A stretch of 14,607 nucleotides of DNA from an uncultured Muribaculaceae bacterium (lineage in GTDB: Bacteria; Bacillota_I; Bacilli_A; RF39; UBA660): NCBI GenBank assembly GCA_964616645.1, contig CAZTUM010000018.1, positions 1 to 14,607 on the forward strand. The letters run 5' to 3'. The notes beneath the pieces are model-generated. The model was given only the letters and a program-made list of their open reading frames with translations, was not told the DNA's origin and made no database searches. The first letter of the stretch is position 1, and the number at the start of each line of letters is the position of its first letter. Both the position numbers and the translations under genes were made by a program. This document shows, in pieces, positions 2 to 14,236 of this stretch.

Positions 2-775
2 TTAAAGACAGAATATTGCTATGAGAGTAAAGATTTTAATGAAGTAAAAGGAAGATTAAAATATTTAAAAGAAATAAAAGGGATAGGATTATTTATAGGT
101 AGTAGTGGATTAGGGAAAACATATTCAATAAGATGTTTTACAGAAAGTTTAAATAAAGATTTATATAAAGTAATATATATATCACCAACAAAGAAGATGC
201 GAGTATTTGAGTTTTTTGCACAAATAGCAAGGAACTTAAATATAGATACAGGAGCTTGTTATAAAAATGAAATGTATGAGAGAATACAAACAGAAATAAA
301 AAGATTAGTAAATGAAAAGAGAATACAACCAATATTTATAATAGATGATGCAGACAATTTAAATGAACATATATTAATGGAATTAAAATTATTATTTGAC
401 TTTCAGATGGATAGTAAAGATTATACAACAATAATACTAGTAGGACATGAAGAGTTAAGAAAAGAATTATCAAAATTAAAATATGAAACATTACAACAAA
501 GAATAGTAGTAAATTATAGATTTAATGGATTATCAAGAGAAGAAGTGAAAGCATATGTAATAAGTAGATTAGAACTAGCAAATCAGAAAAATAAAATATT
601 TCAAGAAGCAGCATTAACAGCACTATATTCAGCAAGTAAAGGAAGTCCAAGAAGATTAAATAATTTAATAATAAATGCATTAATGATAGGATATCAAAAT
701 AATAAAAGTGAGATAGATGAGGAAATAGTGATGTTAGCTAAGAATGAAATTGACTTTATGGAAGGAGAATGGTAA
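2..775 (+). CDS. ExeA/TniB-like AAA+ ATPase (transposition-helper type), 5'-partial; the frame is open to the window edge
   Basis: The frame of ORF 197..775 stays open back to nt 2 (LKTEYCYESKDFNEVKGRLKYLKEIKGIGLFIGSSGLGKT...). Walker A GSSGLGKT is at 98-121 and Walker B is IFIIDDAD. The C-terminal GSPRRLNNL motif is typical of ExeA-family ATPases that accompany DDE (Mu/Tn552/Tn7-like) transposases. Confidence 0.8.
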   Translation, partial: LKTEYCYESKDFNEVKGRLKYLKEIKGIGLFIGSSGLGKTYSIRCFTESLNKDLYKVIYISPTKKMRVFEFFAQIARNLNIDTGACYKNEMYERIQTEIKRLVNEKRIQPIFIIDDADNLNEHILMELKLLFDFQMDSKDYTTIILVGHEELRKELSKLKYETLQQRIVVNYRFNGLSREEVKAYVISRLELANQKNKIFQEAALTALYSASKGSPRRLNNLIINALMIGYQNNKSEIDEEIVMLAKNEIDFMEGEW

Positions 776-990
776 GAAAAAATAAAAGAAAAATGATAAA
801 TAAGTATGAAATAATATATAAAATGAATGCAATAATAGATTATTTAAAAAATAATAATGGATATAATTATAAAACGTATAATATGTTATGTCCAGGTATG
901 GGTGAACCGGATTCAAATATTATTGAATATGCTAAAGATGTTTTAAATATAATTAATGAATTAATTAATAAAAATCAAGAGATTAAATAA
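769..990 (+). CDS. Small hypothetical protein (73 aa), translationally coupled to the ATPase
   Basis: Its ATG overlaps the ATPase stop (ATGGTAA). The ORF is open in AT-rich DNA where stop codons are frequent. I recognise no motif. Confidence 0.4.
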   Translation: MVRKNKRKMINKYEIIYKMNAIIDYLKNNNGYNYKTYNMLCPGMGEPDSNIIEYAKDVLNIINELINKNQEIK

Positions 991-1050
991 ACTTATTAAA
1001 TTATCCCTTGATTTTTTAAATATAATTAAAAAAAATAATACTAAAAACAA

Positions 1051-1079
1051 TTGTCAAAAGAATAAATTTATGATATCAT
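1051..1079 (+). promoter_or_regulatory. Candidate sigma-70-type promoter for the DGR operon
   Basis: TTGTCA (1051-1056), a 17-nt spacer, then TGaTATCAT (extended -10; TATCAT at 1074-1079). It lies about 140 nt upstream of the RBS/ATG at 1206/1220. Confidence 0.35.
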
Positions 1080-1113
1080 TTATACATAAGGTAGGCAAGT
1101 TGATTGAATTATT

Positions 1114-1620
1114 TTGAAGGTAATTTATGTTGAGATAATTTGTAAAAAAAAATCCCAAATAATTCGCAATTATAAAGTCCCAAATAATTCGCAAATCAAC
1201 AATAAGGAGGATAAATTATATGAAAAAACAAACCAACGTTCGTGGGGGGGGGGTACTTTAATAATTAGACAGTCCAGTGGGATTTTCTATGAAGTTAATG
1301 ATAATGATGCAATAATTTTAAATTATTTATTTAATTATAAGATTACTGGTTCTAATAGAGTAGGGTTTCCTAATACTGCATTATCTAAAGTATTAAATAC
1401 TTTAGAAAAAGATAATATAGATTATATTTTATATTATATAAATGGAACAAAAGATGAATACCATAAAGTACCTAATAATTATAATAAAGTATTAACACTT
1501 GCACTTAGTAATTATGATTTTAATAATAAAATAAAAGATATTACTTCTAAAATAAATAAATTAGATAATATTAAATTAAATAATTTATTAAAAATAATCG
1601 AGGATTATTTAAATGAATAA
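1114..1620 (+). CDS. DGR accessory ORF with MutS domain-I-like (mismatch-binding-domain-like) sequence; the native start is probably ATG 1220, which is out of frame as assembled
   Basis: LIIRQSSGIFYEVNDNDAIILNYLFNYKIT...RVGFPNTALSKVLNTLEKDNIDYIL resembles the MutS N-terminus ([17 protein letters not shown]...L.ITLT...PMAGVP..A...YI..L...GYKV). The as-assembled ORF needs TTG 1114, which has no RBS. The strong GGAGG (1206-1210) plus ATG 1220 is in the +1 frame and stops at 1259-1261 after the G10 tract. The stop overlaps the avd start. Confidence 0.5.
   Translation: MKVIYVEIICKKKSQIIRNYKVPNNSQINNKEDKLYEKTNQRSWGGGTLIIRQSSGIFYEVNDNDAIILNYLFNYKITGSNRVGFPNTALSKVLNTLEKDNIDYILYYINGTKDEYHKVPNNYNKVLTLALSNYDFNNKIKDITSKINKLDNIKLNNLLKIIEDYLNE
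1153..1194 (+). repeat. Two perfect 17-bp direct repeats, TCCCAAATAATTCGCAA (1153-1169 and 1178-1194), separated by 8 nt
   Basis: The exact duplication is read directly. It sits between the candidate promoter and the GGAGG RBS of the first DGR gene. I saw no further copies on either strand. Confidence 0.9.
1244..1253 (+). repeat. G10 homopolymer (simple-sequence contingency tract) inside the 5' end of the first DGR accessory gene
   Basis: Ten consecutive G counted at 1244-1253 in otherwise very AT-rich DNA. G11 or G8 would fuse ATG 1220 to the long downstream frame. Confidence 0.95.
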
Positions 1621-1957
1621 TGATTTTAAATTGATTATTTTAGTTAAAAATTATATATTATCTTTAGAGGATTTACTTATTAATGTACCTAATAAAGATT
1701 ATTATAATAAAAATACAATGAGAAGTTATTTAGATGATATTTTATTTTTAATTTATTTAATTAATAATCATAAGGATAAGAATGTTAAGATTAATTTAAA
1801 ATATGTTCTTTTATCTAAGGTTAATATGCTTAATTTTTATATTGAAAGATATCATAAGTTAAAATATATATCTAAAAAACAAGTATTTCAAAATGCTACT
1901 AAGATTGAAGAAATTACTAAAGTTATATATGGATGGATAAAGAGTAATGATAAATAA
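1613..1957 (+). CDS. avd: Avd-like accessory variability determinant (small four-helix-bundle protein)
   Basis: 114 aa, basic and helical, located immediately upstream of the RT and overlapping it. The C-terminal ...KYISKKQVFQNATKIEEITKVIYGWIKS matches the Avd pattern (..is..qy..l...i.eigkml.GW.k). GAGGA RBS lies 8 nt upstream. Confidence 0.75.
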   Translation: MNNDFKLIILVKNYILSLEDLLINVPNKDYYNKNTMRSYLDDILFLIYLINNHKDKNVKINLKYVLLSKVNMLNFYIERYHKLKYISKKQVFQNATKIEEITKVIYGWIKSNDK

Positions 1958-3032
1958 AATAGATTATTTTAAAATATTGGATACTTATGATAAGACTGTA
2001 AGTAAAAGAGTTAGAAATAAAAGAAGTTTAATTAATATGGAAATGAATAAAATTAGCTATGTTAGTAATATTTATAATTTATTAATTAATAATAATTATA
2101 AATTTTATAAATATAATATTTTTATAATAAAAGAACATAAATATAGAATTGTTATGTCATCTAATATCTATGATAAAGTAATTAATCATTATTATACAAA
2201 TGAATTTTTATATAAAAAGGTAGAACCTTATTTAGATAAAAGAAATATTGCTACTAGAATAGGTATGGGTACTGACTATGGTATTAAATTAATAAAAAAA
2301 TATTATGAAATATATAAAAAGTATGATACTTTTTATATATTAAAATTAGATATAAAGAAGTATTTTTATAGTATAGACCATAATGTATTAAAGAGTATGT
2401 TAAAAGATATATTAGATAAATATGAGTATTATATAATATGTAATATTATTGATAGTACTAATTATGATTATATTAATAATGAGATTAAGAAATTAAAGAT
2501 TAAATATAATAATCCTTATGTTAATGATATTCCATATTATTTACATGATAAAGGTCTAGCTATAGGACTTATGACTAATCAAACTTTAGCAATATTTTAT
2601 TTATATAAATTACATAATTTTATTAATAGAAAACTAAAATTAAAACATTTTATTTCTTATATGGATGATATAATTATATTTCATAAAGATAAAGATTATT
2701 TAAAGTATTCTTTAAAAGAAATAGAAAAATATTTAAATAATGTTTTAAAATTAGAGTTAAATAAAAATAAAACTATGATATGTAAATCAAGTAATTGGGT
2801 AGAGTTTTTAGGATATAATTTTAAAGTAGTTAATAAGAAAACTATTATTAGAATTAGAAGTAAGTCATTAAAAAGAATAAAGAAGAATATTAAGAATACT
2901 AAATATTTATATGATATTAATAAGATATCTTTAGAGAAAGCTTTTTCTATTATTAATAATTATAAATATAGTTATAAATATGATAAAAGTATGAAAGTTA
3001 ATAATTTAATAGATAAATATTGGAGGTGTTAA
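1947..3032 (+). CDS. DGR-type reverse transcriptase
   Basis: 361 aa. Motifs present: KYRIVMSSNIYDKVINH (KxRxI....DRVVQH-like), LDIKKYFYSIDH, GLAIGLMTNQTLAIFYL (compare Bordetella bRT GLPIGNLTSQHFANFYL; nt 2562-2582) and the catalytic YMDD (2658-2669). There is no maturase or endonuclease extension. A cognate TR starts 26 nt after the stop. Confidence 0.93.
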   Translation: MINKIDYFKILDTYDKTVSKRVRNKRSLINMEMNKISYVSNIYNLLINNNYKFYKYNIFIIKEHKYRIVMSSNIYDKVINHYYTNEFLYKKVEPYLDKRNIATRIGMGTDYGIKLIKKYYEIYKKYDTFYILKLDIKKYFYSIDHNVLKSMLKDILDKYEYYIICNIIDSTNYDYINNEIKKLKIKYNNPYVNDIPYYLHDKGLAIGLMTNQTLAIFYLYKLHNFINRKLKLKHFISYMDDIIIFHKDKDYLKYSLKEIEKYLNNVLKLELNKNKTMICKSSNWVEFLGYNFKVVNKKTIIRIRSKSLKRIKKNIKNTKYLYDINKISLEKAFSIINNYKYSYKYDKSMKVNNLIDKYWRC

Positions 3033-3057
3033 ATATAAAAGGGTAATATGAATTAAA

Positions 3058-3149
3058 TTACTCCTAATTCTAGTAATTCTAACAACGTCTTCAACGTGAA
3101 CAACAATGCGAATGTGAACAGCAACAACGCGAACAATGGCAACGGCGTT
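3058..3149 (+). repeat. DGR template repeat (TR); the 5' boundary could be 3055
   Basis: The 92-nt segment aligns without gaps (offset 1565) to 4623-4714. All 59 non-A positions are identical, and 16 of the 33 A positions differ in the VR. It is much more GC-rich than its surroundings and lies in intergenic DNA just 3' of the RT. Confidence 0.95.
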
Positions 3150-3309
3150 TCCTAGTACTTTATTTACTTGGTAATTTTAAAGGTCTATCCTTTAAAATCT
3201 ATAGGAATAAAGGACAAGTATTATCCTTGATACTAAGTATCTAAATTTAAATTATGGATGGATATTTCTTAGTTATTTATCCTAGAACCATAATATATTT
3301 AATTTTATT
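3150..3309 (+). ncRNA. Noncoding segment 3' of TR; candidate DGR RNA spacer or priming region
   Basis: A 160-nt ORF-free stretch follows TR directly. I can draw only short helices, for example AAGGA 3210-3214 with TCCTT 3224-3228, and GATAC-TAA-GTATC at 3229-3241. The assignment is by analogy to the spacer needed for cDNA priming in the Bordetella phage DGR. Confidence 0.25.
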
Positions 3310-3651
3310 ATGAGTGTATATAATAGATATAAATTTATAAAAGATATATATAGTAATTATATAATATTTATAAAGAAAAAGAATAAATATTATACTTATG
3401 ATATAGATAATAAAATGCTTAGAAGTTTAAAAGTAAATTATTATAAAGATATTGATAAGTATAAAATAAATTATTTACTTATTAATAATTTAGAAATTAT
3501 TAATAAGGTTGAATATAAAAATAATAATTATAATAAATATTTAATTAATTATTTAATAAATGAAATTTATAATAGATATAAAGAAAGAGAAGATGGTTAT
3601 AATGAAGAAATTATTAAAAATATTAGTTCCTATAGTAATAATATGTATTAG
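3310..3651 (+). CDS. Hypothetical 113-aa protein between TR and the target gene; possibly a second MutS-domain-I-like accessory
   Basis: An open frame of 113 codons is unlikely by chance at this AT content. RYKFIKDIYSNYIIFIKKKNKYYTYDIDNKMLRSL loosely parallels MutS [36 protein letters not shown]. There is no obvious SD, the sequence is low-complexity, and it overlaps the target gene 5' end by about 50 nt. Confidence 0.4.
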   Translation: MSVYNRYKFIKDIYSNYIIFIKKKNKYYTYDIDNKMLRSLKVNYYKDIDKYKINYLLINNLEIINKVEYKNNNYNKYLINYLINEIYNRYKEREDGYNEEIIKNISSYSNNMY

Positions 3652-4798
3652 TATATTTATTATTAATAAAAATAATAATAAATATACTAGTATTTCAGGT
3701 TACCCTAATACTAAGATTATGGTATCTTATAATGGAGTTGCTAGGAGTGATTTTCCTAGTAAGGATACTTCTTTATATTATAATGTTACTACTAATTGTA
3801 ATAATGCTTCTTCTCATTGGGATTATGATAATTGGGAATTAGTAATTAGTAATTTAACTAGTACTAGTAAATGTAATGTAGATTTTACTACTAGTAGTAA
3901 AACTACCTTATATAACTATATAGTAAATACATTATATAATAATACGGATGGAAATAATGATATATATAAAGAAGACCATACAATAAATAATAATAGTTAT
4001 TCAGAATATAGATATGAAGGAGAAGATACAAAAGTAAATAATTATGTATGGTTTAATAATGAATTATGGAGAATAATCGGGGCATTTCCAGGAGGAACAC
4101 CCACTACTAGTAGTACTAGTCTAGGAGATGGAGCACCTAGTACAAATAATACAGTAAAAATAATAAGAAATGATTCATTAGGAAGTTATGCTTGGAGTAA
4201 AAGTAATACCAATGAATGGACTACAGCCTCATTGAATAGAGAAATATTAAATAATTTATATTTAAATTCATCTTCAGGAACATGTAATTTTTATTCAACT
4301 TCAGTATCAAAAGCATGTGACTTTACAAGTAATGGACTAAGTAATGTAGAAGACTTTATAGAAAATGCAACATGGAATTTAGGAGGGTATAGTAGTAGTT
4401 CAGTGACAGCAAGTAGTATGTATGAATATGAAAGAGGCACCACAGTATATTCAGGAAGAAGTATATATGCAACAGTGAAAGTAGGACTAATGTATCCATC
4501 AGACTATGGATATTCAGTAACTAACACAAACTGTAATCACAGTAGTACAAATCTATCTAGTTATAACTCTTCATCATGTGGAGGAAAGAGTTGGATGTTA
4601 AAGTATGGATTTGAATGGACTCTTACTCCTTATTCTAGTTATTCTTACTACGTCTTCGACGTGAACAACTTTGCGAGTGTGTACAGCGTCATCGCGAGCT
4701 TTGGCGACGGCGTTCGACCAGTCGTATATCTAAAATCTAATGTCTATGTAACAGGGGGAGATGGAAGTATTGATAATCCATATCAAGTATCACTTTAA
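3602..4798 (+). CDS. DGR target (variable) protein: N-terminal membrane anchor, Asn/Ser/Thr-rich ectodomain, C-terminal VR-bearing lectin-like domain
   Basis: The ORF is open from ATG 3560. ATG 3602 (alternative 3593) gives MKKLLKILVPIVIICISIFII, a signal-anchor. The C-terminus EWTLTPYSSYSYYVFDVNNFASVYSVIASFGDGVRPVVYLK contains the VR in frame and ends with the G.RPV motif seen in DUF1566/CLec-like DGR variable domains. Confidence 0.88.
   Translation: MKKLLKILVPIVIICISIFIINKNNNKYTSISGYPNTKIMVSYNGVARSDFPSKDTSLYYNVTTNCNNASSHWDYDNWELVISNLTSTSKCNVDFTTSSKTTLYNYIVNTLYNNTDGNNDIYKEDHTINNNSYSEYRYEGEDTKVNNYVWFNNELWRIIGAFPGGTPTTSSTSLGDGAPSTNNTVKIIRNDSLGSYAWSKSNTNEWTTASLNREILNNLYLNSSSGTCNFYSTSVSKACDFTSNGLSNVEDFIENATWNLGGYSSSSVTASSMYEYERGTTVYSGRSIYATVKVGLMYPSDYGYSVTNTNCNHSSTNLSSYNSSSCGGKSWMLKYGFEWTLTPYSSYSYYVFDVNNFASVYSVIASFGDGVRPVVYLKSNVYVTGGDGSIDNPYQVSL
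4623..4714 (+). repeat. DGR variable repeat (VR) within the 3' end of the target gene
   Basis: It is the counterpart of TR 3058-3149. The 16 differences (11 A->T, 5 A->G) are all at TR adenines. Homology ends at 4714/4715, right after the GC-rich GGCGACGGCGTT. Confidence 0.95.
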
Positions 4799-4847: not shown

Positions 4848-4873
4848 ATTAAATATATGTTAACCAAATATGG

Positions 4874-4902
4874 TTGACATCTTTTATTTAATATGATAAT
4901 AT
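4874..4902 (+). promoter_or_regulatory. Promoter of the rpsP operon
   Basis: TTGACA (4874-4879), a 17-nt spacer, then TGaTAATAT (extended -10; TAATAT at 4897-4902). Confidence 0.6.
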
Positions 4903-5550: not shown

Positions 5551-6309
5551 ATGAGTTCTATTAAGATTGATAACATGAATATAAATTATTTAAGATATGG
5601 TAAGGGTTCTATAACGATGGTTTTATTGCATGGTTGGGGTCAAAATATTAAGATGATGATGCCTATTGGAAATGCTTTTAAGAGTATGTTTGATATAGTT
5701 ATTATTGATTTACCAGGATTTGGAGATAGTGATGAACCTAAGGAGGTACTTAGTATATCTTCATATGCAGATATAGTTAATAAGGTTATTAATAGTTTAG
5801 GTATTTCTTCTGTTATTTTAATTGGACATTCTTTTGGAGGTAGAGTAGCTATTTCATATGCTAGTAAGTATAAGGTTAGGAAGTTGATACTTTTATCTAG
5901 TCCTTTTGAGAAGAGAATTAAGAAGAAGAGTTTTAAACAAAAATTGCTTATGGTTTTAAAAAAGGTTCCTTTATTAAATAAATTAGAACCTTGGGCTAAG
6001 AATCATTTAGGTTCTAGTGATTATAAGAATGCTTCTTTTATGATGAAGAAGATACTTGTAAATACTGTTAATACTGATTTAACTGATGAAGCATCTAAGA
6101 TTTTAGTACCCACTTTGATTATTCAAGGGGACTGTGATTCTGCAGTTTCTTTAGAAGAAGCTAAGAGGTTAAATGATATAATTAAAGATAGTGGACTTGT
6201 TGTTTATAATAATAAGAGTCATTATGCTTATTTAGAGGATTTAAATAAGACTATTAGTGTTTTAGATAAATTTTTATATAAAGAAAGTAGGGAAGATAAT
6301 GAAAATTAA
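5551..6309 (+). CDS. Alpha/beta-fold hydrolase
   Basis: HGWGQ oxyanion-region motif and GHSFGG nucleophile elbow (GxSxG). The C-terminus contains D...H. AAGGTGAGAAG RBS. Confidence 0.8.
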   Translation: MSSIKIDNMNINYLRYGKGSITMVLLHGWGQNIKMMMPIGNAFKSMFDIVIIDLPGFGDSDEPKEVLSISSYADIVNKVINSLGISSVILIGHSFGGRVAISYASKYKVRKLILLSSPFEKRIKKKSFKQKLLMVLKKVPLLNKLEPWAKNHLGSSDYKNASFMMKKILVNTVNTDLTDEASKILVPTLIIQGDCDSAVSLEEAKRLNDIIKDSGLVVYNNKSHYAYLEDLNKTISVLDKFLYKESREDNEN

Positions 6310-7471
6310 AGTTGGTTTTATATATGGAGGGAATAGTGTAGAACACGAGATATCTGTTATATCTGCTGTTCAAGCTATGGAATATTTAGATGATGATAAG
6401 TATGAGGTAGTTCCTATTTATATTACACATGATAGGAAAATGTATACTGGAGGTATGCTTACTGATATAGAAAGTTATAAAGATTTTAGTTTGATTAAGA
6501 AGTATGGTAAGAGAATTAATTTAATAAATAAAGATGGTAGGATAATTTTACAAGGTGGTAGAATATTTAAAAGAGAGATAAATTATATAGATATTGCTTT
6601 TCCTATTGTTCATGGTAGTGGTTGTGAAGATGGTAGTATTGCTGGTTATTTAGAAACTTTAGGTATTCCTTATGTAGGTAGTAAGGTATGTTCTTCTGCA
6701 GTAGGTCAAGATAAAGTATTCCAAAAACAAATATTTTCATGCAATGATATACCTGTTGTTAATTATACTTGGTTTTTTGATAATGAATATGATAGTGATA
6801 GAGAGGGTGTTATTAATAAGATAAACAACTTATCATATCCTCTTATAGTTAAACCCGCGAATTTAGGTAGTAGTATTGGTATTAGTTATGTAGAGAATAA
6901 AGATATGCTTTCTAAGGCTATAGAAGAAGCTATATCTTATGATAGTAAGATACTTGTTGAAGAGGTTGTTAGTAATCTTTGTGAAGTTAATCAATCTGTC
7001 TTGGGTACTACTAGTAAATGTATGACTTCTTTGATTGAAGAGGTTATTAAGGAAGATGATATTTTATCATATAAGGATAAATATTTAAGTAATGGTAAAT
7101 TATCTGGTAGTAAAGGAATGGCATCTACTAGAAGGATAATGCCCGCTAGAATTAGTGATAAGTTATCTAGTGAGATAGATGATATATCTAAAAGAGTATT
7201 TAAATGTCTTAATAACAGTGGGGTAGTTAGAATAGATTATTTAATAGATAATAAGAGTAAGAAAGTATATGTAAATGAAATTAATACTATTCCAGGTTCG
7301 CTCTCATATTATTTATGGGAAGGTAAGAATATAAGTTATTATGAGCTTTTAGATATGCTTATTACTAATGAAATAAAAGATTATAAGAAAAAAATGAAAA
7401 AGATGTCTTCTTTTAAAACTAATATATTGAGTAATTATGGTATGTATGGTACTAAAGGAATTAAGAAATAA
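6299..7471 (+). CDS. ddl: D-alanine--D-alanine ligase
   Basis: KVGFIYGGNSVEHEISVISA N-terminus, the ATP-grasp region LIVKPANLGSSIGIS, and C-terminal VNEINTIPG. Confidence 0.93.
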   Translation: MKIKVGFIYGGNSVEHEISVISAVQAMEYLDDDKYEVVPIYITHDRKMYTGGMLTDIESYKDFSLIKKYGKRINLINKDGRIILQGGRIFKREINYIDIAFPIVHGSGCEDGSIAGYLETLGIPYVGSKVCSSAVGQDKVFQKQIFSCNDIPVVNYTWFFDNEYDSDREGVINKINNLSYPLIVKPANLGSSIGISYVENKDMLSKAIEEAISYDSKILVEEVVSNLCEVNQSVLGTTSKCMTSLIEEVIKEDDILSYKDKYLSNGKLSGSKGMASTRRIMPARISDKLSSEIDDISKRVFKCLNNSGVVRIDYLIDNKSKKVYVNEINTIPGSLSYYLWEGKNISYYELLDMLITNEIKDYKKKMKKMSSFKTNILSNYGMYGTKGIKK

Positions 7472-8019
7472 TGTATGAATATATAAGTGGTAAGGTTACT
7501 TTAGTTAAGAGTAATTATATAGTTCTTGATAATAATAATATTGGTTATGCTATATATGTTGCTAATCCATATTCATATCATATTGATAATGAATATAAAG
7601 TATATATATATACTCAAATAAAAGAAGATGAACATCTGTTATATGGTTTTAGTAAAGAAGAAGAAAAAGAATTATTTTTAAGTCTTATAAACGTAAAGGG
7701 TTTAGGCCCTAAGTTAGCTATGGTTATATTGTCTCATGGTGATATTTCTTATGTAAAAGAAGCAATAGAGAAAGAAGATATATCTTATTTAAAGAAATTT
7801 CCTAAAGTTGGAGATAAAGTAGCTAGACAGATTATACTTGATTTAAAAGGGAAATTAGCAAAAGGGGATACTAGGTATGATGAACAACAAGAGTTGATTT
7901 CTGTTTTAGAGAATTTAGGCTATAAAACTGTAGACATTAAGAGGGTACTTCCTAATATAAGTAAGAATATAACAATAGAACAACAAATAAAAGAAGCTCT
8001 TAAGTTAATGATAAAATAA
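7471..8019 (+). CDS. ruvA: Holliday junction branch-migration complex subunit RuvA
   Basis: MYEYISGKV...NNIGYAIYV...LLYGF...EKELFLSLINVKGLGPKLAMVIL, followed by HhH motifs and a C-terminal domain III-like tail. Confidence 0.9.
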   Translation: MYEYISGKVTLVKSNYIVLDNNNIGYAIYVANPYSYHIDNEYKVYIYTQIKEDEHLLYGFSKEEEKELFLSLINVKGLGPKLAMVILSHGDISYVKEAIEKEDISYLKKFPKVGDKVARQIILDLKGKLAKGDTRYDEQQELISVLENLGYKTVDIKRVLPNISKNITIEQQIKEALKLMIK

Positions 8020-11459: not shown

Positions 11460-12437
11460 TTGAAAAACAATATGATTATATATGTATCAAAAGATGGTAA
11501 TATAAAAGTTGATGTTAATATTCAAAATGAAGATATATGGATGAGTCAAGATGTAATGGCTAATCTTTATGATACTACTAAAAATAATATTTCTATGCAC
11601 TTAAAAAATATCTTTGATGAAGGTGAACTCCAAAAAGATTCAGTTGTTAAGAAATTCTTAACAACTGCAAATGATGGTAAGAAATATAATGTTTTACATT
11701 ATAATTTAGATGCAATTATTGCTGTTGGATATAGAATTAATTCTAAAAAAGCAACTGAATTTAGAATATGGTCAACTAAAGTTTTAAAAGAATATATGAT
11801 TAAAGGATTTGCTTTAAATGATGAAAGATTAAAGAATAATGGAGAAAGTCCATATTTTGAAGAGTTGCTTGCTAGAATTCGTGATATTAGGTCTTCTGAA
11901 AAAATATTTTGGAGAAAAGTGTTGGATATTTATGCAACTTCAATTGATTATGATCCAAAAAATAGATTATCAATTGATTTCTTTAAAACAGTACAAAATA
12001 AAATGCATTATGCTACTCATGGACATACTGCAGCTGAAATCATATTTACTAGAGTAGATTCTGAAAAAGATCATTTAGGACTTACTAATTTTAAAGGTAA
12101 TTATCCAACAAAGAGTGAAACTGAAATTGCTAAAAATTATTTAACTGAAGAAGAACTTAATACCTTAAATAGAATTGTATCTGCCTATTTAGATGTTGCT
12201 GAAATTAATGCTTTAGATAGGCATCCAATGACTATGCAAGATTGGGTGAATGAATTAGATTCATTTCTAAAAATGACTAGGAAGGATATATTAAATGGCT
12301 CAGGTACGATATCACACAAAGAAGCATTAGAAAAAGCACATAAAGAATATGATAAATATATGCAAAAACATTTAACTACTGCTGAACAAGATTATTTGGA
12401 AATGTTAAATAAAGAAGTTGAAGAAATTGATAAATAA
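11460..12437 (+). CDS. RhuM-family protein
   Basis: ...WMSQDVMANLYDTTKNNISMHLKNIFDEGEL....VVKKFLTTANDGKKYNVLHYNLDAIIAVGYRINSKKATEFRIWSTKVLKEYMIKGF..NDERLK is the characteristic RhuM N-terminal half. The start is TTG 11460 (GGTGA upstream); ATG 11472 is the alternative. Confidence 0.8.
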   Translation: MKNNMIIYVSKDGNIKVDVNIQNEDIWMSQDVMANLYDTTKNNISMHLKNIFDEGELQKDSVVKKFLTTANDGKKYNVLHYNLDAIIAVGYRINSKKATEFRIWSTKVLKEYMIKGFALNDERLKNNGESPYFEELLARIRDIRSSEKIFWRKVLDIYATSIDYDPKNRLSIDFFKTVQNKMHYATHGHTAAEIIFTRVDSEKDHLGLTNFKGNYPTKSETEIAKNYLTEEELNTLNRIVSAYLDVAEINALDRHPMTMQDWVNELDSFLKMTRKDILNGSGTISHKEALEKAHKEYDKYMQKHLTTAEQDYLEMLNKEVEEIDK

Positions 12438-12533
12438 TTGATTATGATTTACCAGGATAAACGCATGAGATTACAATTACTAAATTCTCAATAAAATAAG
12501 GGGTTAAATATTTAATGTTAAAGATTATATGAA

Positions 12534-12598
12534 GAGCCGTATGCGAGAAATTCGCACGTACGGTTCTGTGAGGGGCGACAGACTTCCTCTCACTAGAT
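12534..12598 (+). mobile_element. Group II intron domain V plus domain VI-like hairpin (orphan 3' fragment; no intron ORF or 5' domains nearby)
   Basis: GAGCCGTATGCGAGAAATTCGCACGTACGGTTC (12534-12566) matches the domain V consensus: the AGC triad, GAGCCGUAU pairing with GUACGGUUC, an AC bulge and a GAAA-type loop. Next comes an 8-bp helix, GTGAGGGG (12568-12575) with CCTCTCAC (12586-12593), then ...AGAT (AY end near 12598). Confidence 0.65.
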
Positions 12599-12858
12599 AA
12601 GAAAGGGAGGTGTAGTCGAGTTGTCTACTCGACAGAACTATGAAAGAAAACAAAGATTTAAATACAGATTTTCAAAATAATTTGGATTATGTATTAATCA
12701 ATTTAGAAAAAGATATATTTAAAGCAAATAGTTAGAAGATAAGTTGTATTTGGAAATGTCTAAAGATGATAAACCAATAATAAAAGCAACTACACCAAAT
12801 AGTAGTAAATATGATACAAAAATAGATGCGTATATTTAAGCTCCTAAAGTCCTACATG

Positions 12859-13030: not shown

Positions 13031-14236
13031 ATGAATATAATATATCGTGAAGAATATATAAATAAATTAATATCTTTAAAAGATAAAAAAATAATAAAAG
13101 TTTTAACTGGTATAAGACGGGCAGGTAAGTCTACAATATTACAAGATTTTAAAGAATATCTTTTAAAAAATGGTGTAGATGAAAAAAATATAATATTTAT
13201 AAATCTGGATGATAAAAATTATAGACATTTACTTGACTCAGATATATTACATGATTATATATTATCTAACGTAGATTTAGATAAAAAAAATTATATATTT
13301 TTAGATGAAATACAAAATGTCAAAGAATTTGAAAAGTGTATAAATAGTTTATTTTTAAGAGAAAATTTGGATATATATATAACTGGTTCTAATTCATATA
13401 TGTTATCTGGAGAACTTGCTACTTATTTAACTGGTAGATATATTCAAATACACGTTTTACCATTATCATTTAAAGAATACTTAAGTTATTATGGAGAAAG
13501 TGATGAATTAAAAAAATATAATGATTATGTAACCTATGGTGGATTTCCATATTTAATAAATCTTGATAATAATAAAGATAAAATGGAATATTTAGATAGT
13601 ATTTATAATACTGTAATTATGAAAGATGTTATAAATAGAAAAAAAGTTAATGACCCCATGATGTTAGAAAGTATATGTAGGTTTATATTTGATAGTATAG
13701 GCTCTAGCATATCAACAAAAAAGATAAGTGATACTTTAGCATCAAATGGAAGAAAGAATTCTGTTCATACAGTTGAAGAATACTTAAATGCACTTTTAGA
13801 AAGTTATATATTATATAAGGTTAATAGATTTGATATAAAGGGTAGAGAATTATTAAAAACTCAAGAAAAATATTATTTATCTGATGTAGGATTAAGAACT
13901 TATTTACTTGGTAATTCATCTGGTAAAGATTTAGGACATATATTTGAAAATATAATATTTTTAGAATTAAAAAGAAGAGGGTATAAAATATATATTGGTA
14001 AGGATAACGAAAATGAAGTAGATTTTGTGTGTCAAACTGAAGATGATACAATATATATACAAGTATCTTTAACCGTAAGAGATGAAAATACATTAAAAAG
14101 AGAGTTAAAATCTTTAGAAGCAATACAAGACCATTATAAAAAATATATAATAACTCTTGATTATGATACAAATAATTATAATGGAATAAAACAAATAAGT
14201 GCTATGGATTTTTTACTTGGTAAAATCGAAATATAA
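13031..14236 (+). CDS. AAA-family ATPase with a DUF4143-type C-terminal domain (COG1373-like)
   Basis: Walker A GIRRAGKST and Walker B YIFLDEIQ. The LSFKEYL motif and the C-terminal ...EVDFV... nuclease-like/DUF4143 region are typical of this family. Confidence 0.85.
   Translation: MNIIYREEYINKLISLKDKKIIKVLTGIRRAGKSTILQDFKEYLLKNGVDEKNIIFINLDDKNYRHLLDSDILHDYILSNVDLDKKNYIFLDEIQNVKEFEKCINSLFLRENLDIYITGSNSYMLSGELATYLTGRYIQIHVLPLSFKEYLSYYGESDELKKYNDYVTYGGFPYLINLDNNKDKMEYLDSIYNTVIMKDVINRKKVNDPMMLESICRFIFDSIGSSISTKKISDTLASNGRKNSVHTVEEYLNALLESYILYKVNRFDIKGRELLKTQEKYYLSDVGLRTYLLGNSSGKDLGHIFENIIFLELKRRGYKIYIGKDNENEVDFVCQTEDDTIYIQVSLTVRDENTLKRELKSLEAIQDHYKKYIITLDYDTNNYNGIKQISAMDFLLGKIEI

Follow-up and report, generated by a model that had tools for sequence, protein, structure and literature searches.

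A MutS domain I-like accessory gene with a probable degenerate paralogue and a candidate phase-variable start in a diversity-generating retroelement

Why does a retroelement that writes mutations into its own target gene carry small proteins resembling the mismatch-binding domain of MutS, and in what state are the genes that encode them? The question is raised by a 14,607-nucleotide (nt) stretch of contig CAZTUM010000018.1 (the window, which throughout means this whole stretch), in which two short open reading frames (ORFs), ORF1 at 1114-1620 and ORF2 at 3310-3651, flank the reverse transcriptase (RT) gene and template repeat (TR) of a diversity-generating retroelement (DGR). All features of the DGR cassette of the window described below lie on the forward strand; L-numbers denote related loci or contigs, and P-numbers denote protein cluster representatives. 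The initial annotation of this DNA had quoted peptides from both ORFs, which are present where it placed them, and had proposed that the two are MutS domain I-like DGR accessories and possibly paralogues. We conclude that this DGR is chromosomal and belongs to an uncultured gut bacterium of low GC content (Bacilli/Mycoplasmatota), that its Msl (MutS-like) accessory gene is ORF1, that ORF2 is very probably a degenerate and shortened relative of it, and that a poly-G tract near the start of msl probably varies in length between samples.

Neither window protein matched MutS_I in Pfam or NCBIfam when queried alone, and PHROGs returned no match for either. The Pfam comparison proposed in the initial annotation succeeded at the level of the Msl family. 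A word-indexed search returned eight relatives of ORF1, one of which carried a precomputed match to PF01624 (MutS_I). An exhaustive hidden Markov model (HMM) search built from an alignment of these relatives retrieved 1122 cluster representatives at E ≤ 1e-3, including 481 at E ≤ 1e-10, and nearly all members of the family are 115 to 145 amino acids (aa) long. Of 126 family members that were aligned, 86 matched PF01624 with E ≤ 0.01, the strongest at 3e-9; no second family recurred among the matches. When Msl profiles were compared with the sequences of the Protein Data Bank (PDB), the top four matches were to domain I of MSH6 or Thermus aquaticus (Taq) MutS, aligned at GKFYELY/GDFYECF, at E values of 0.14 to 0.8 that are not significant on their own. 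A search of viral contigs with the small Msl alignment found nothing.

Structural prediction led to the same family. An AlphaFold2 model of Msl, computed from the 126-sequence alignment (pLDDT, 93.3; pTM, 0.82), has a beta-beta-alpha-beta-alpha-beta-beta core at residues 13 to 80 followed by long helices at residues 87 to 112 and 116 to 130. In the window, the MutS domain I-like alpha/beta core with its G-x-F-Y-E and G-F-P motifs is encoded at approximately 1258-1461, and the C-terminal two-helix hairpin is encoded at approximately 1480-1611. In a Foldseek search of the PDB, the 21 best matches of the model were all MutS, MSH6, or MSH3 (probability, 0.97 to 1.00), the closest superimposing with a root mean square deviation (rmsd) of 1.4 to 2.4 Å over about 60 columns at about 22% identity. 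Among the viral models of BFVD, where the top matches were likewise all of the MutS family (probability, 1.00), phage "MutS domain I" proteins ranked highest (E 7.6e-4; rmsd, 1.1 Å), together with MutS7 of giant viruses. The likeness of ORF1 to MutS domain I therefore exceeds what its composition would explain, given the family-wide Pfam matches and a model that matched only domain I of the MutS family, and the fold named in the initial annotation is borne out.

Conservation within the Msl family peaks at G20-x-F22-Y23, D29-A30, G48-F49-P50, and N85-x-Y87. Of 126 members, 125 have the wedge phenylalanine and more than 114 have G-F-P. Msl shares with domain I of MutS and MSH6 (PF01624; PDB 1E3M, 1EWQ, and 2O8B) an alpha/beta fold of about 60 to 70 residues, the G-x-F-Y-E motif with its mismatch-stacking phenylalanine, and the G-(I/V/F)-P strand. 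Beyond domain I and two helices Msl has nothing further: no other Pfam domain was found in it, and the connector, core, clamp, and ATPase domains of canonical MutS are all absent, so it can neither form a sliding clamp nor activate MutL, and its C-terminal helical hairpin is an addition that canonical MutS lacks. The phage "MutS domain I" proteins likewise stand alone (74 to 153 aa) and share the fold but are shorter than Msl.

The surroundings of ORF1 are those of a complete DGR, with the gene order msl, avd, RT, TR, ORF2, and a target gene that carries the variable repeat (VR), in DNA of only 15 to 23% G+C. The avd gene (1613-1957) matches Pfam bAvd (E 1.2e-4), NCBIfam DivGenRetAVD (E 1.2e-5), and the PHROG "Avd protein of DGR" (E 1.6e-6), and the RT gene (1947-3032) matches Pfam RVT_1 (E 2.3e-11) and the group II intron-like RT family (E 1.6e-18). 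The avd start overlaps the msl stop, and the RT start overlaps the avd stop. TR (3058-3149) and VR (4623-4714) form a 92-nt direct repeat of 83% identity in which all 16 mismatches fall at TR adenines, and VR lies in the C-terminal region of the target gene (3602-4798). The window therefore holds what defines a DGR: an RT, a TR/VR pair differing only at TR adenines, and a VR at the C terminus of a target. Across related loci that cover the region, local HMM annotation shows msl, avd, and RT adjacent as a fixed core in nearly all (three are decayed), which is the co-occurrence that the initial annotation had asked about. NCBI names on cluster members place the hosts among uncultured Bacilli and Mycoplasmatota.

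This context agrees with a described class. Msl has been listed among DGR accessories since 2017, and MSL was defined as an accessory found invariably together with avd (Wu et al. 2018, NAR 46:11, PMC5758913), comprising proteins of 112 to 283 aa with MutS homology, encoded where avd is present without HRDC, and roughly neutral in charge, with an isoelectric point (pI) of 7.2 ± 1.7 (PMC5758913). The Msl proteins of Bacteroides DGRs (Bfr/Bth/Bun) have been described as homologous to the domain with which MutS recognizes mismatches (bioRxiv 10.1101/2024.11.15.621889). The initial annotation mentioned such a class; it exists, and ORF1 fits it as a small stand-alone MutS-domain homologue beside avd and RT, with no HRDC among the cassette ORFs scanned with Pfam and NCBIfam. 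Its pI of 9.0 lies at the upper edge of the published range (the mean of the 126-member family is 8.1 ± 1.4). ORF1 is almost certainly a new but ordinary member of the Msl class. What sets the window lineage apart from published Msl systems is the added degenerate ORF2, a full second msl and avd in one relative, and a hypervariable poly-G tract at the 5' end of msl; in the literature searched, we found neither a paralogue or module duplication nor a hypervariable repeat at the msl start described.

What Msl does can be framed by what host mismatch repair does to DGRs. Deletion of host mutS raises DGR mutagenesis 5- to 10-fold, in an all-or-nothing manner (bioRxiv 10.1101/2024.11.15.621889). 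With host MutS reducing DGR output to this extent, a mismatch-binding module without an ATPase is an obvious candidate for a countermeasure. In the mechanism that we propose, the RT-Avd complex would copy TR RNA into adenine-mutagenized cDNA, and pairing of this cDNA with VR would create a heteroduplex dense in mismatches. Msl would bind the heteroduplex through its conserved phenylalanine wedge and, by occupying the mismatches, would protect the new sequence from all-or-nothing reversal by MutS; lacking the ATPase and the parts that recruit MutL, it could not itself start repair and so would act as a shield. We hold shielding from mismatch repair only as a tentative assignment of function, short of even odds, and several points count against it. 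The mismatch-checking glutamate of the MutS Phe-X-Glu motif, present in the window's Msl as F-Y-E, is found in just 14 of 126 family members, which makes true mismatch specificity doubtful. The literature searched yielded no experiment that addressed what Msl does. In organisms of the Mycoplasmatota type, mutS and mutL are often missing; if the hosts of these cassettes lack them, there would be nothing to shield against, and shielding becomes less probable. Finally, a role within the RT complex would account at least equally well for the fusion of MutS_I domains to RTs and for how tightly msl overlaps avd.

That role is the strongest competitor. Instead of opposing repair, Msl could be a subunit of the RT-Avd ribonucleoprotein. 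While cDNA is made or integrated, it would bind either the template-primer or the target DNA, perhaps keeping mispaired A:N ends in place or guiding cDNA to VR, and ORF2 would be a second structural subunit. Within the Msl HMM family, three proteins of about 500 aa (P0083, P0102, and P0133) and one fragment join RVT_1 to MutS_I above Pfam thresholds; such fusions, which differ from the window's arrangement in having no separate msl gene, were also noted by Wu et al. and argue for a physical link between Msl and RT. In addition, msl, avd, and RT overlap each other in nearly every locus, one relative (L004) has a second msl beginning 5 nt after RT, and a subunit role would sit easily with the poor conservation of the mismatch-checking glutamate. 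Against this, avd is present in about 74% of the DGRs compiled by Wu et al., but MSL occurs in only 16 of 372, so the core reaction does not need Msl, and the invariant residue is the DNA-wedging phenylalanine, which points to duplex distortion or mismatch binding. We judge a subunit role somewhat unlikely and slightly less probable than shielding. Outside the window, P0083, P0102, P0133, and P0046, all members of the Msl HMM family, are DGR-type RTs with a C-terminal MutS_I domain.

ORF1 as given (1114-1620; 168 aa) opens at a TTG codon under translation table 11. We rejected TTG 1114 as the msl start: it has no ribosome-binding site, and the N-terminal 45 aa that it adds are unconserved, whereas the peptide read from an ATG at 1220 is conserved. 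This ATG (1220-1222), read from the sequence as the probable true start, lies behind the ribosome-binding site AAGGAGG (1204-1210) and encodes MKKQTNVRGGGVL followed by a stop, in a frame other than that of the Msl body (1255-1620; stop codon, 1618-1620). In-frame homologues begin MKKQTNVRNGGGTLIVRQ; P0002 and P0003 begin M(T)KKQTNVR, and intact homologues read M(T)KKQTNVRxGGGTLIVRQ. Since these N termini correspond to the peptide read from ATG 1220, the real msl gene runs from 1220 to 1620 and is broken by a frameshift in a run of 10 G residues (1244-1253), eight codons into the gene, where the two frames meet; 8 or 11 G would restore the frame. The corrected product, of about 133 aa, is encoded directly upstream of avd-RT-TR. 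The MutS-like ORF of the initial annotation is thus real, but its TTG start is wrong, and as read from the tract length the window's copy is out of frame, in a predicted phase OFF state.

The same tract takes different lengths elsewhere. Lengths were compared among near-identical contigs from other samples, using assembled contigs only. Relative to the first ATG, tracts of 7 G (L040), 9 G (L009, 122-130, an NCBI metagenome-assembled genome), and 10 G (L032-L034, L037, L038, L041, and L043-L051) are out of frame, and a tract of 8 G (L008, 568-575) is in frame; interrupted tracts are in frame in L010 and out of frame in L035, L036, and L042. Two diverged msl lineages carry a tract as well. In L014 and L015, runs of 8 G (3806-3813) and 7 G (3288-3294), respectively, follow directly after ATG-GGA and both are out of frame; L017 has 10 G (2970-2979) at the same place, where 9 are required for frame. 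At the protein level, the N termini of the listed members of the 90%-identity clusters fall in all three frames and carry two to four glycines. They are of the types MKKQTNVR.GGGT; MFETGG(G)(G)T or MFVRGG(G)T, from a second ATG; MCGGGT or ..NQCSCGGGT; and internal-start calls of 86 or 76 aa, each variant being present on as many as 12 contigs by the cluster table and as many as 19 by contig look-ups. The window's copy is in the third frame and has AACGTT in place of AATGTT, hence no second ATG.

Here a run of simple sequence within 5' coding DNA has different lengths in contigs from different samples and thereby shifts the frame, which is the pattern of a contingency locus. The tract resembles the poly-G/C loci of Campylobacter, Neisseria, and Haemophilus in being a homopolymer just past the start with length polymorphism and three frames across samples, and it differs from them in that the gene switched would be a hypermutation accessory, not a surface or restriction-modification gene, and in being known here from assembled contigs. 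We consider it probable that the tract is truly hypervariable, and its length differences suggest slipped-strand phase variation of Msl translation; lengths spread over three frames fit slippage at the DNA level better than programmed ribosomal frameshifting. JGI metagenomes and IMG/VR returned no match to a DNA pattern of the tract plus its downstream flank, and a literature search found no paper linking DGRs with homopolymer phase variation.

If the length differences were instead homopolymer sequencing or assembly errors, msl would be intact and constitutively translated and the window would hold a one-base miscall. Homopolymers of 8 to 10 bases are error-prone, several of the contigs have low coverage (0.5x for L018), and assembly error may explain part of the length differences, which tells against a switch. 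As a full explanation, however, error is improbable. Lengths of 7 to 10 and interrupted variants recur over many independent assemblies, and each variant was seen more than once: P0228 on 11 contigs, P0230 on 8 by the cluster table and 10 by the look-up, and P0215 on 12 by the cluster table and 19 by the look-up. The tract is also conserved in position in three diverged msl lineages (the window clade, L014/L015, and L017) in DNA of 15 to 25% G+C, and in L013 its position is taken by a different repeat.

That repeat, in a sister msl lineage, is a 13-nt tandem unit, GCAACACAACAAT, present in 5.3 copies (L013, 317-385). With an ATG in every copy and a unit length that three does not divide, the repeat could be a second kind of simple sequence able to shift the start frame. 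In L043 (approximately 635-650) and L044 (approximately 35-50), the A run after the msl ATG is seven long as opposed to six in siblings, which adds a second source of frameshift upstream of the G tract. Other G or C runs of at least 7 are rare in the related low-GC DNA: 179 kb held four sites, two of them being one site at different lengths. That site, a G tract with identical flanks about 200 nt downstream of the RT gene of a related DGR, has 10 G in L021 (2278-2287) and 12 G in L022 (3179-3190).

Is ORF2, then, a second mismatch reader? ORF2 (3310-3651; here also Msl2) starts at an ATG and encodes 113 aa with a pI of 9.3. Its homologues form 55 clusters of proteins of about 100 aa, uniformly basic (pI 9.5 ± 0.2); every cluster is either without annotation or labeled "hypothetical," and Pfam domains are lacking throughout. 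The alignment of the two ORFs suggested in the initial annotation gave nothing significant by BLASTP (E 0.53). Profile comparison detected the relationship: hhalign matched the ORF2-family profile to the Msl-family profile over 83 columns (94.5%, E 7.6e-8; 46% and 2e-4 with smaller alignments), whereas controls in which either alignment was reversed, or in which the ORF2 columns were shuffled 30 times, reached at most 0.3%, with E values of at least 0.19. Consistent with this result, eight members of the ORF2 family score 11 to 16 bits against the Msl HMM, values that 300 shuffles of each never reach; the remaining ORFs of the same DNA score at most 3.5 bits, and the window's own ORF2 scores only 3.6 bits.

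The shared profile reflects shared parts. ORF2 retains the N-terminal helix, the first beta-hairpin, the DxxI helix, the I-N-Y-L strand, and the NNYNKYL motif, and its AlphaFold2 model (pLDDT, 88.7) has the order of elements of Msl minus one strand. Relative to Msl, it lacks about 16 residues bearing the GFP strand, and the column of the wedge phenylalanine holds lysine in the window and lysine, arginine, or glutamate in the family; neither G-x-F-Y nor G-F-P is found in ORF2. Direct likeness to MutS is weak. In Foldseek, sensible rmsd values were obtained only for MSH3 (probability, 0.97; TM, 0.50) and Escherichia coli MutS (probability, 0.4 to 0.5); in Pfam, 6 of 49 family members matched MutS_I at E values of at least 0.03, no different from unrelated noise families; and a PDB sequence search with the ORF2 profile found nothing. 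The claim that ORF2 is MutS-like therefore stands by way of the Msl profile and not by a match of its own: ORF2 is related to MutS only via Msl. We conclude that ORF2 is very probably a degenerate, shortened, basic Msl paralogue. Its loss of the wedge phenylalanine and of the GFP strand marks it as a degenerate copy, not a second mismatch reader, and it is unlikely to read mismatches itself. No description of such a paralogue was found in the literature searched.

The pairing of the two genes, anticipated in the initial annotation as an unusual duplication, recurs in related cassettes. ORF2 lies between TR and the target gene in the window, L004-L007, L009, and L014-L016; a gene of its size (about 96 to 97 aa; 111 aa in L040), taken from gene tables by size and position, occupies the same place in most loci that reach far enough (L032-L034, L037-L040, L042-L044, and L046-L049). 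In L002, L022, and L023, ORF2 precedes msl on its upstream side. The more distant msl cassettes L025, L027, L028, L030, and L031 (34 to 45% identity) have no ORF2 within 5 kb. ORF2 is thus found only in the closest relatives of this DGR and always within msl-bearing cassettes. A scan of GTDB genomes with the ORF2 alignment gave two loci, one already among the relatives; the other, L012, was set aside as a weak fragment with no DGR nearby. Duplication is not confined to ORF2. L004 (1049-4082) has the order msl, avd, RT, msl, avd, ORF2-like gene, target, with two full msl and two avd genes, and L019 has an additional broken msl; module duplication is therefore recurrent in this clade.

It is very improbable that ORF2 is unrelated to Msl, that is, a small basic protein or a noncoding ORF that mimics the Msl profile through a K/N/Y/I-rich composition. 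The BLASTP result, the background-level score of the window's ORF2 against the Msl HMM, the noise-level MutS_I matches, and the empty PDB search are what such mimicry would give. It would not give the profile alignment and its clean controls, the members that score above all shuffles and other ORFs, the shared order of secondary-structure elements with sensible Foldseek matches only in the MutS family, or conservation in 55 clusters that always lie inside msl-bearing cassettes. Equally weak is a decaying cassette with an msl pseudogene and an inactive DGR: the frameshift does leave the window without an ATG-initiated full-length msl, and relatives with a truncated msl (L009) or fragmented genes (L019, L020, and L031) exist, but the window's msl, the tract aside, has its full length and shares 78% identity with intact homologues; avd, RT, TR, ORF2, and the target show no damage; TR and VR differ purely at adenines; and the only lesion lies in a tract that slippage could reverse.

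Taken together, the explanation that we favor on balance combines mismatch shielding by Msl, a paralogous partner, and an ON/OFF switch. ORF2 would serve as a non-reading partner subunit, standing to Msl as MSH2 does to MSH6 and joined to it through the C-terminal helical hairpins. The slippage-prone poly-G tract after the msl start would turn Msl translation on and off, off in the window, and the state of the tract would set the amount of Msl and hence how much diversification the cassette delivers. The likeness to MSH2-MSH6 or to the asymmetric MutS homodimer, an analogy only, is that the wedge phenylalanine is kept in one co-encoded protein (ORF1) and lost in the other (ORF2); unlike in MSH2-MSH6, ORF2 has lost a whole beta-strand as well. 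The most far-reaching form of the proposal, an asymmetric ATPase-less "mini-MutS" heterodimer of Msl and ORF2 that occupies the cDNA:VR heteroduplex and blocks its repair, and whose supply is toggled by the poly-G tract or, in a sister lineage, the 13-nt repeat, is conceivable but doubtful.

Other features of the window bear on how the cassette is expressed and delimited. A promoter-like site (1051-1079; TTGTCA, 17 nt, TG-TATCAT) was found by a consensus scan, with 10 of 12 positions matching and an extended -10 TG; it is a consensus match only, the count of such sites in the region not exceeding that in shuffles, and by its position upstream of msl it is likely to mark the start of the DGR operon transcript. 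Between this site and the msl ribosome-binding site are two exact 17-nt direct repeats, TCCCAAATAATTCGCAA (1153-1169 and 1178-1194), spaced 25 nt start to start; none of 200 shuffles contained two or more copies. The repeats are missing in the closest relatives, whose upstream region differs and has a hairpin, and are a candidate operator or 5' untranslated region element. Downstream of TR, 160 nt separate it from ORF2 (3150-3309). RNA folding of 3030-3310 gave a z score of -2.86, with none of 200 shuffles folded as well, and this structured noncoding stretch, which matched no Rfam family, may correspond to the spacer of the DGR RNA that priming requires. A hairpin followed by a T run (4857-4880; one found against 0.3 expected) resembles a terminator and is the likely end of the operon.

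The target gene has an N-terminal hydrophobic anchor, an alternative upstream ATG at 3560, and no Pfam or PHROG match; related target genes are found in L014. There, target-type genes with VR-like C termini flank the DGR cassette on both sides (65-3572 and 6287-7483), and a gene ending at 1018 has a third C terminus that is C-type-lectin-like, which suggests a multi-target DGR. Just upstream of the window's DGR, an AAA_22-type ATPase ORF (197-775) has its best NCBIfam match over only positions 89 to 260 of a 269-position model; apparently without its N-terminal part, it may be a mobile-element remnant. Far downstream, between genes ending at 12437 and starting at 13031, an Rfam group II intron match (12532-12633; RF00029, 60.5 bits, E 4.7e-10) has no intron-encoded protein nearby and may mark either an intron that carries no ORF or a 3' fragment.

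That a second, degenerate copy is conserved hints at two subunits arranged as in MSH2-MSH6. In-frame and out-of-frame msl alleles occur naturally across many public gut metagenomes, and these ON and OFF alleles make Msl function testable from existing public metagenome data, with no culture needed. An anti-repair accessory could raise the editing yields of DGR-based directed-evolution tools in mismatch-repair-proficient hosts. A switch of this kind, if real, would place a hypermutation device under the control of phase variation: targeted hypermutation would be turned ON and OFF heritably and reversibly within a population, with one stochastic mutation mechanism gating another.

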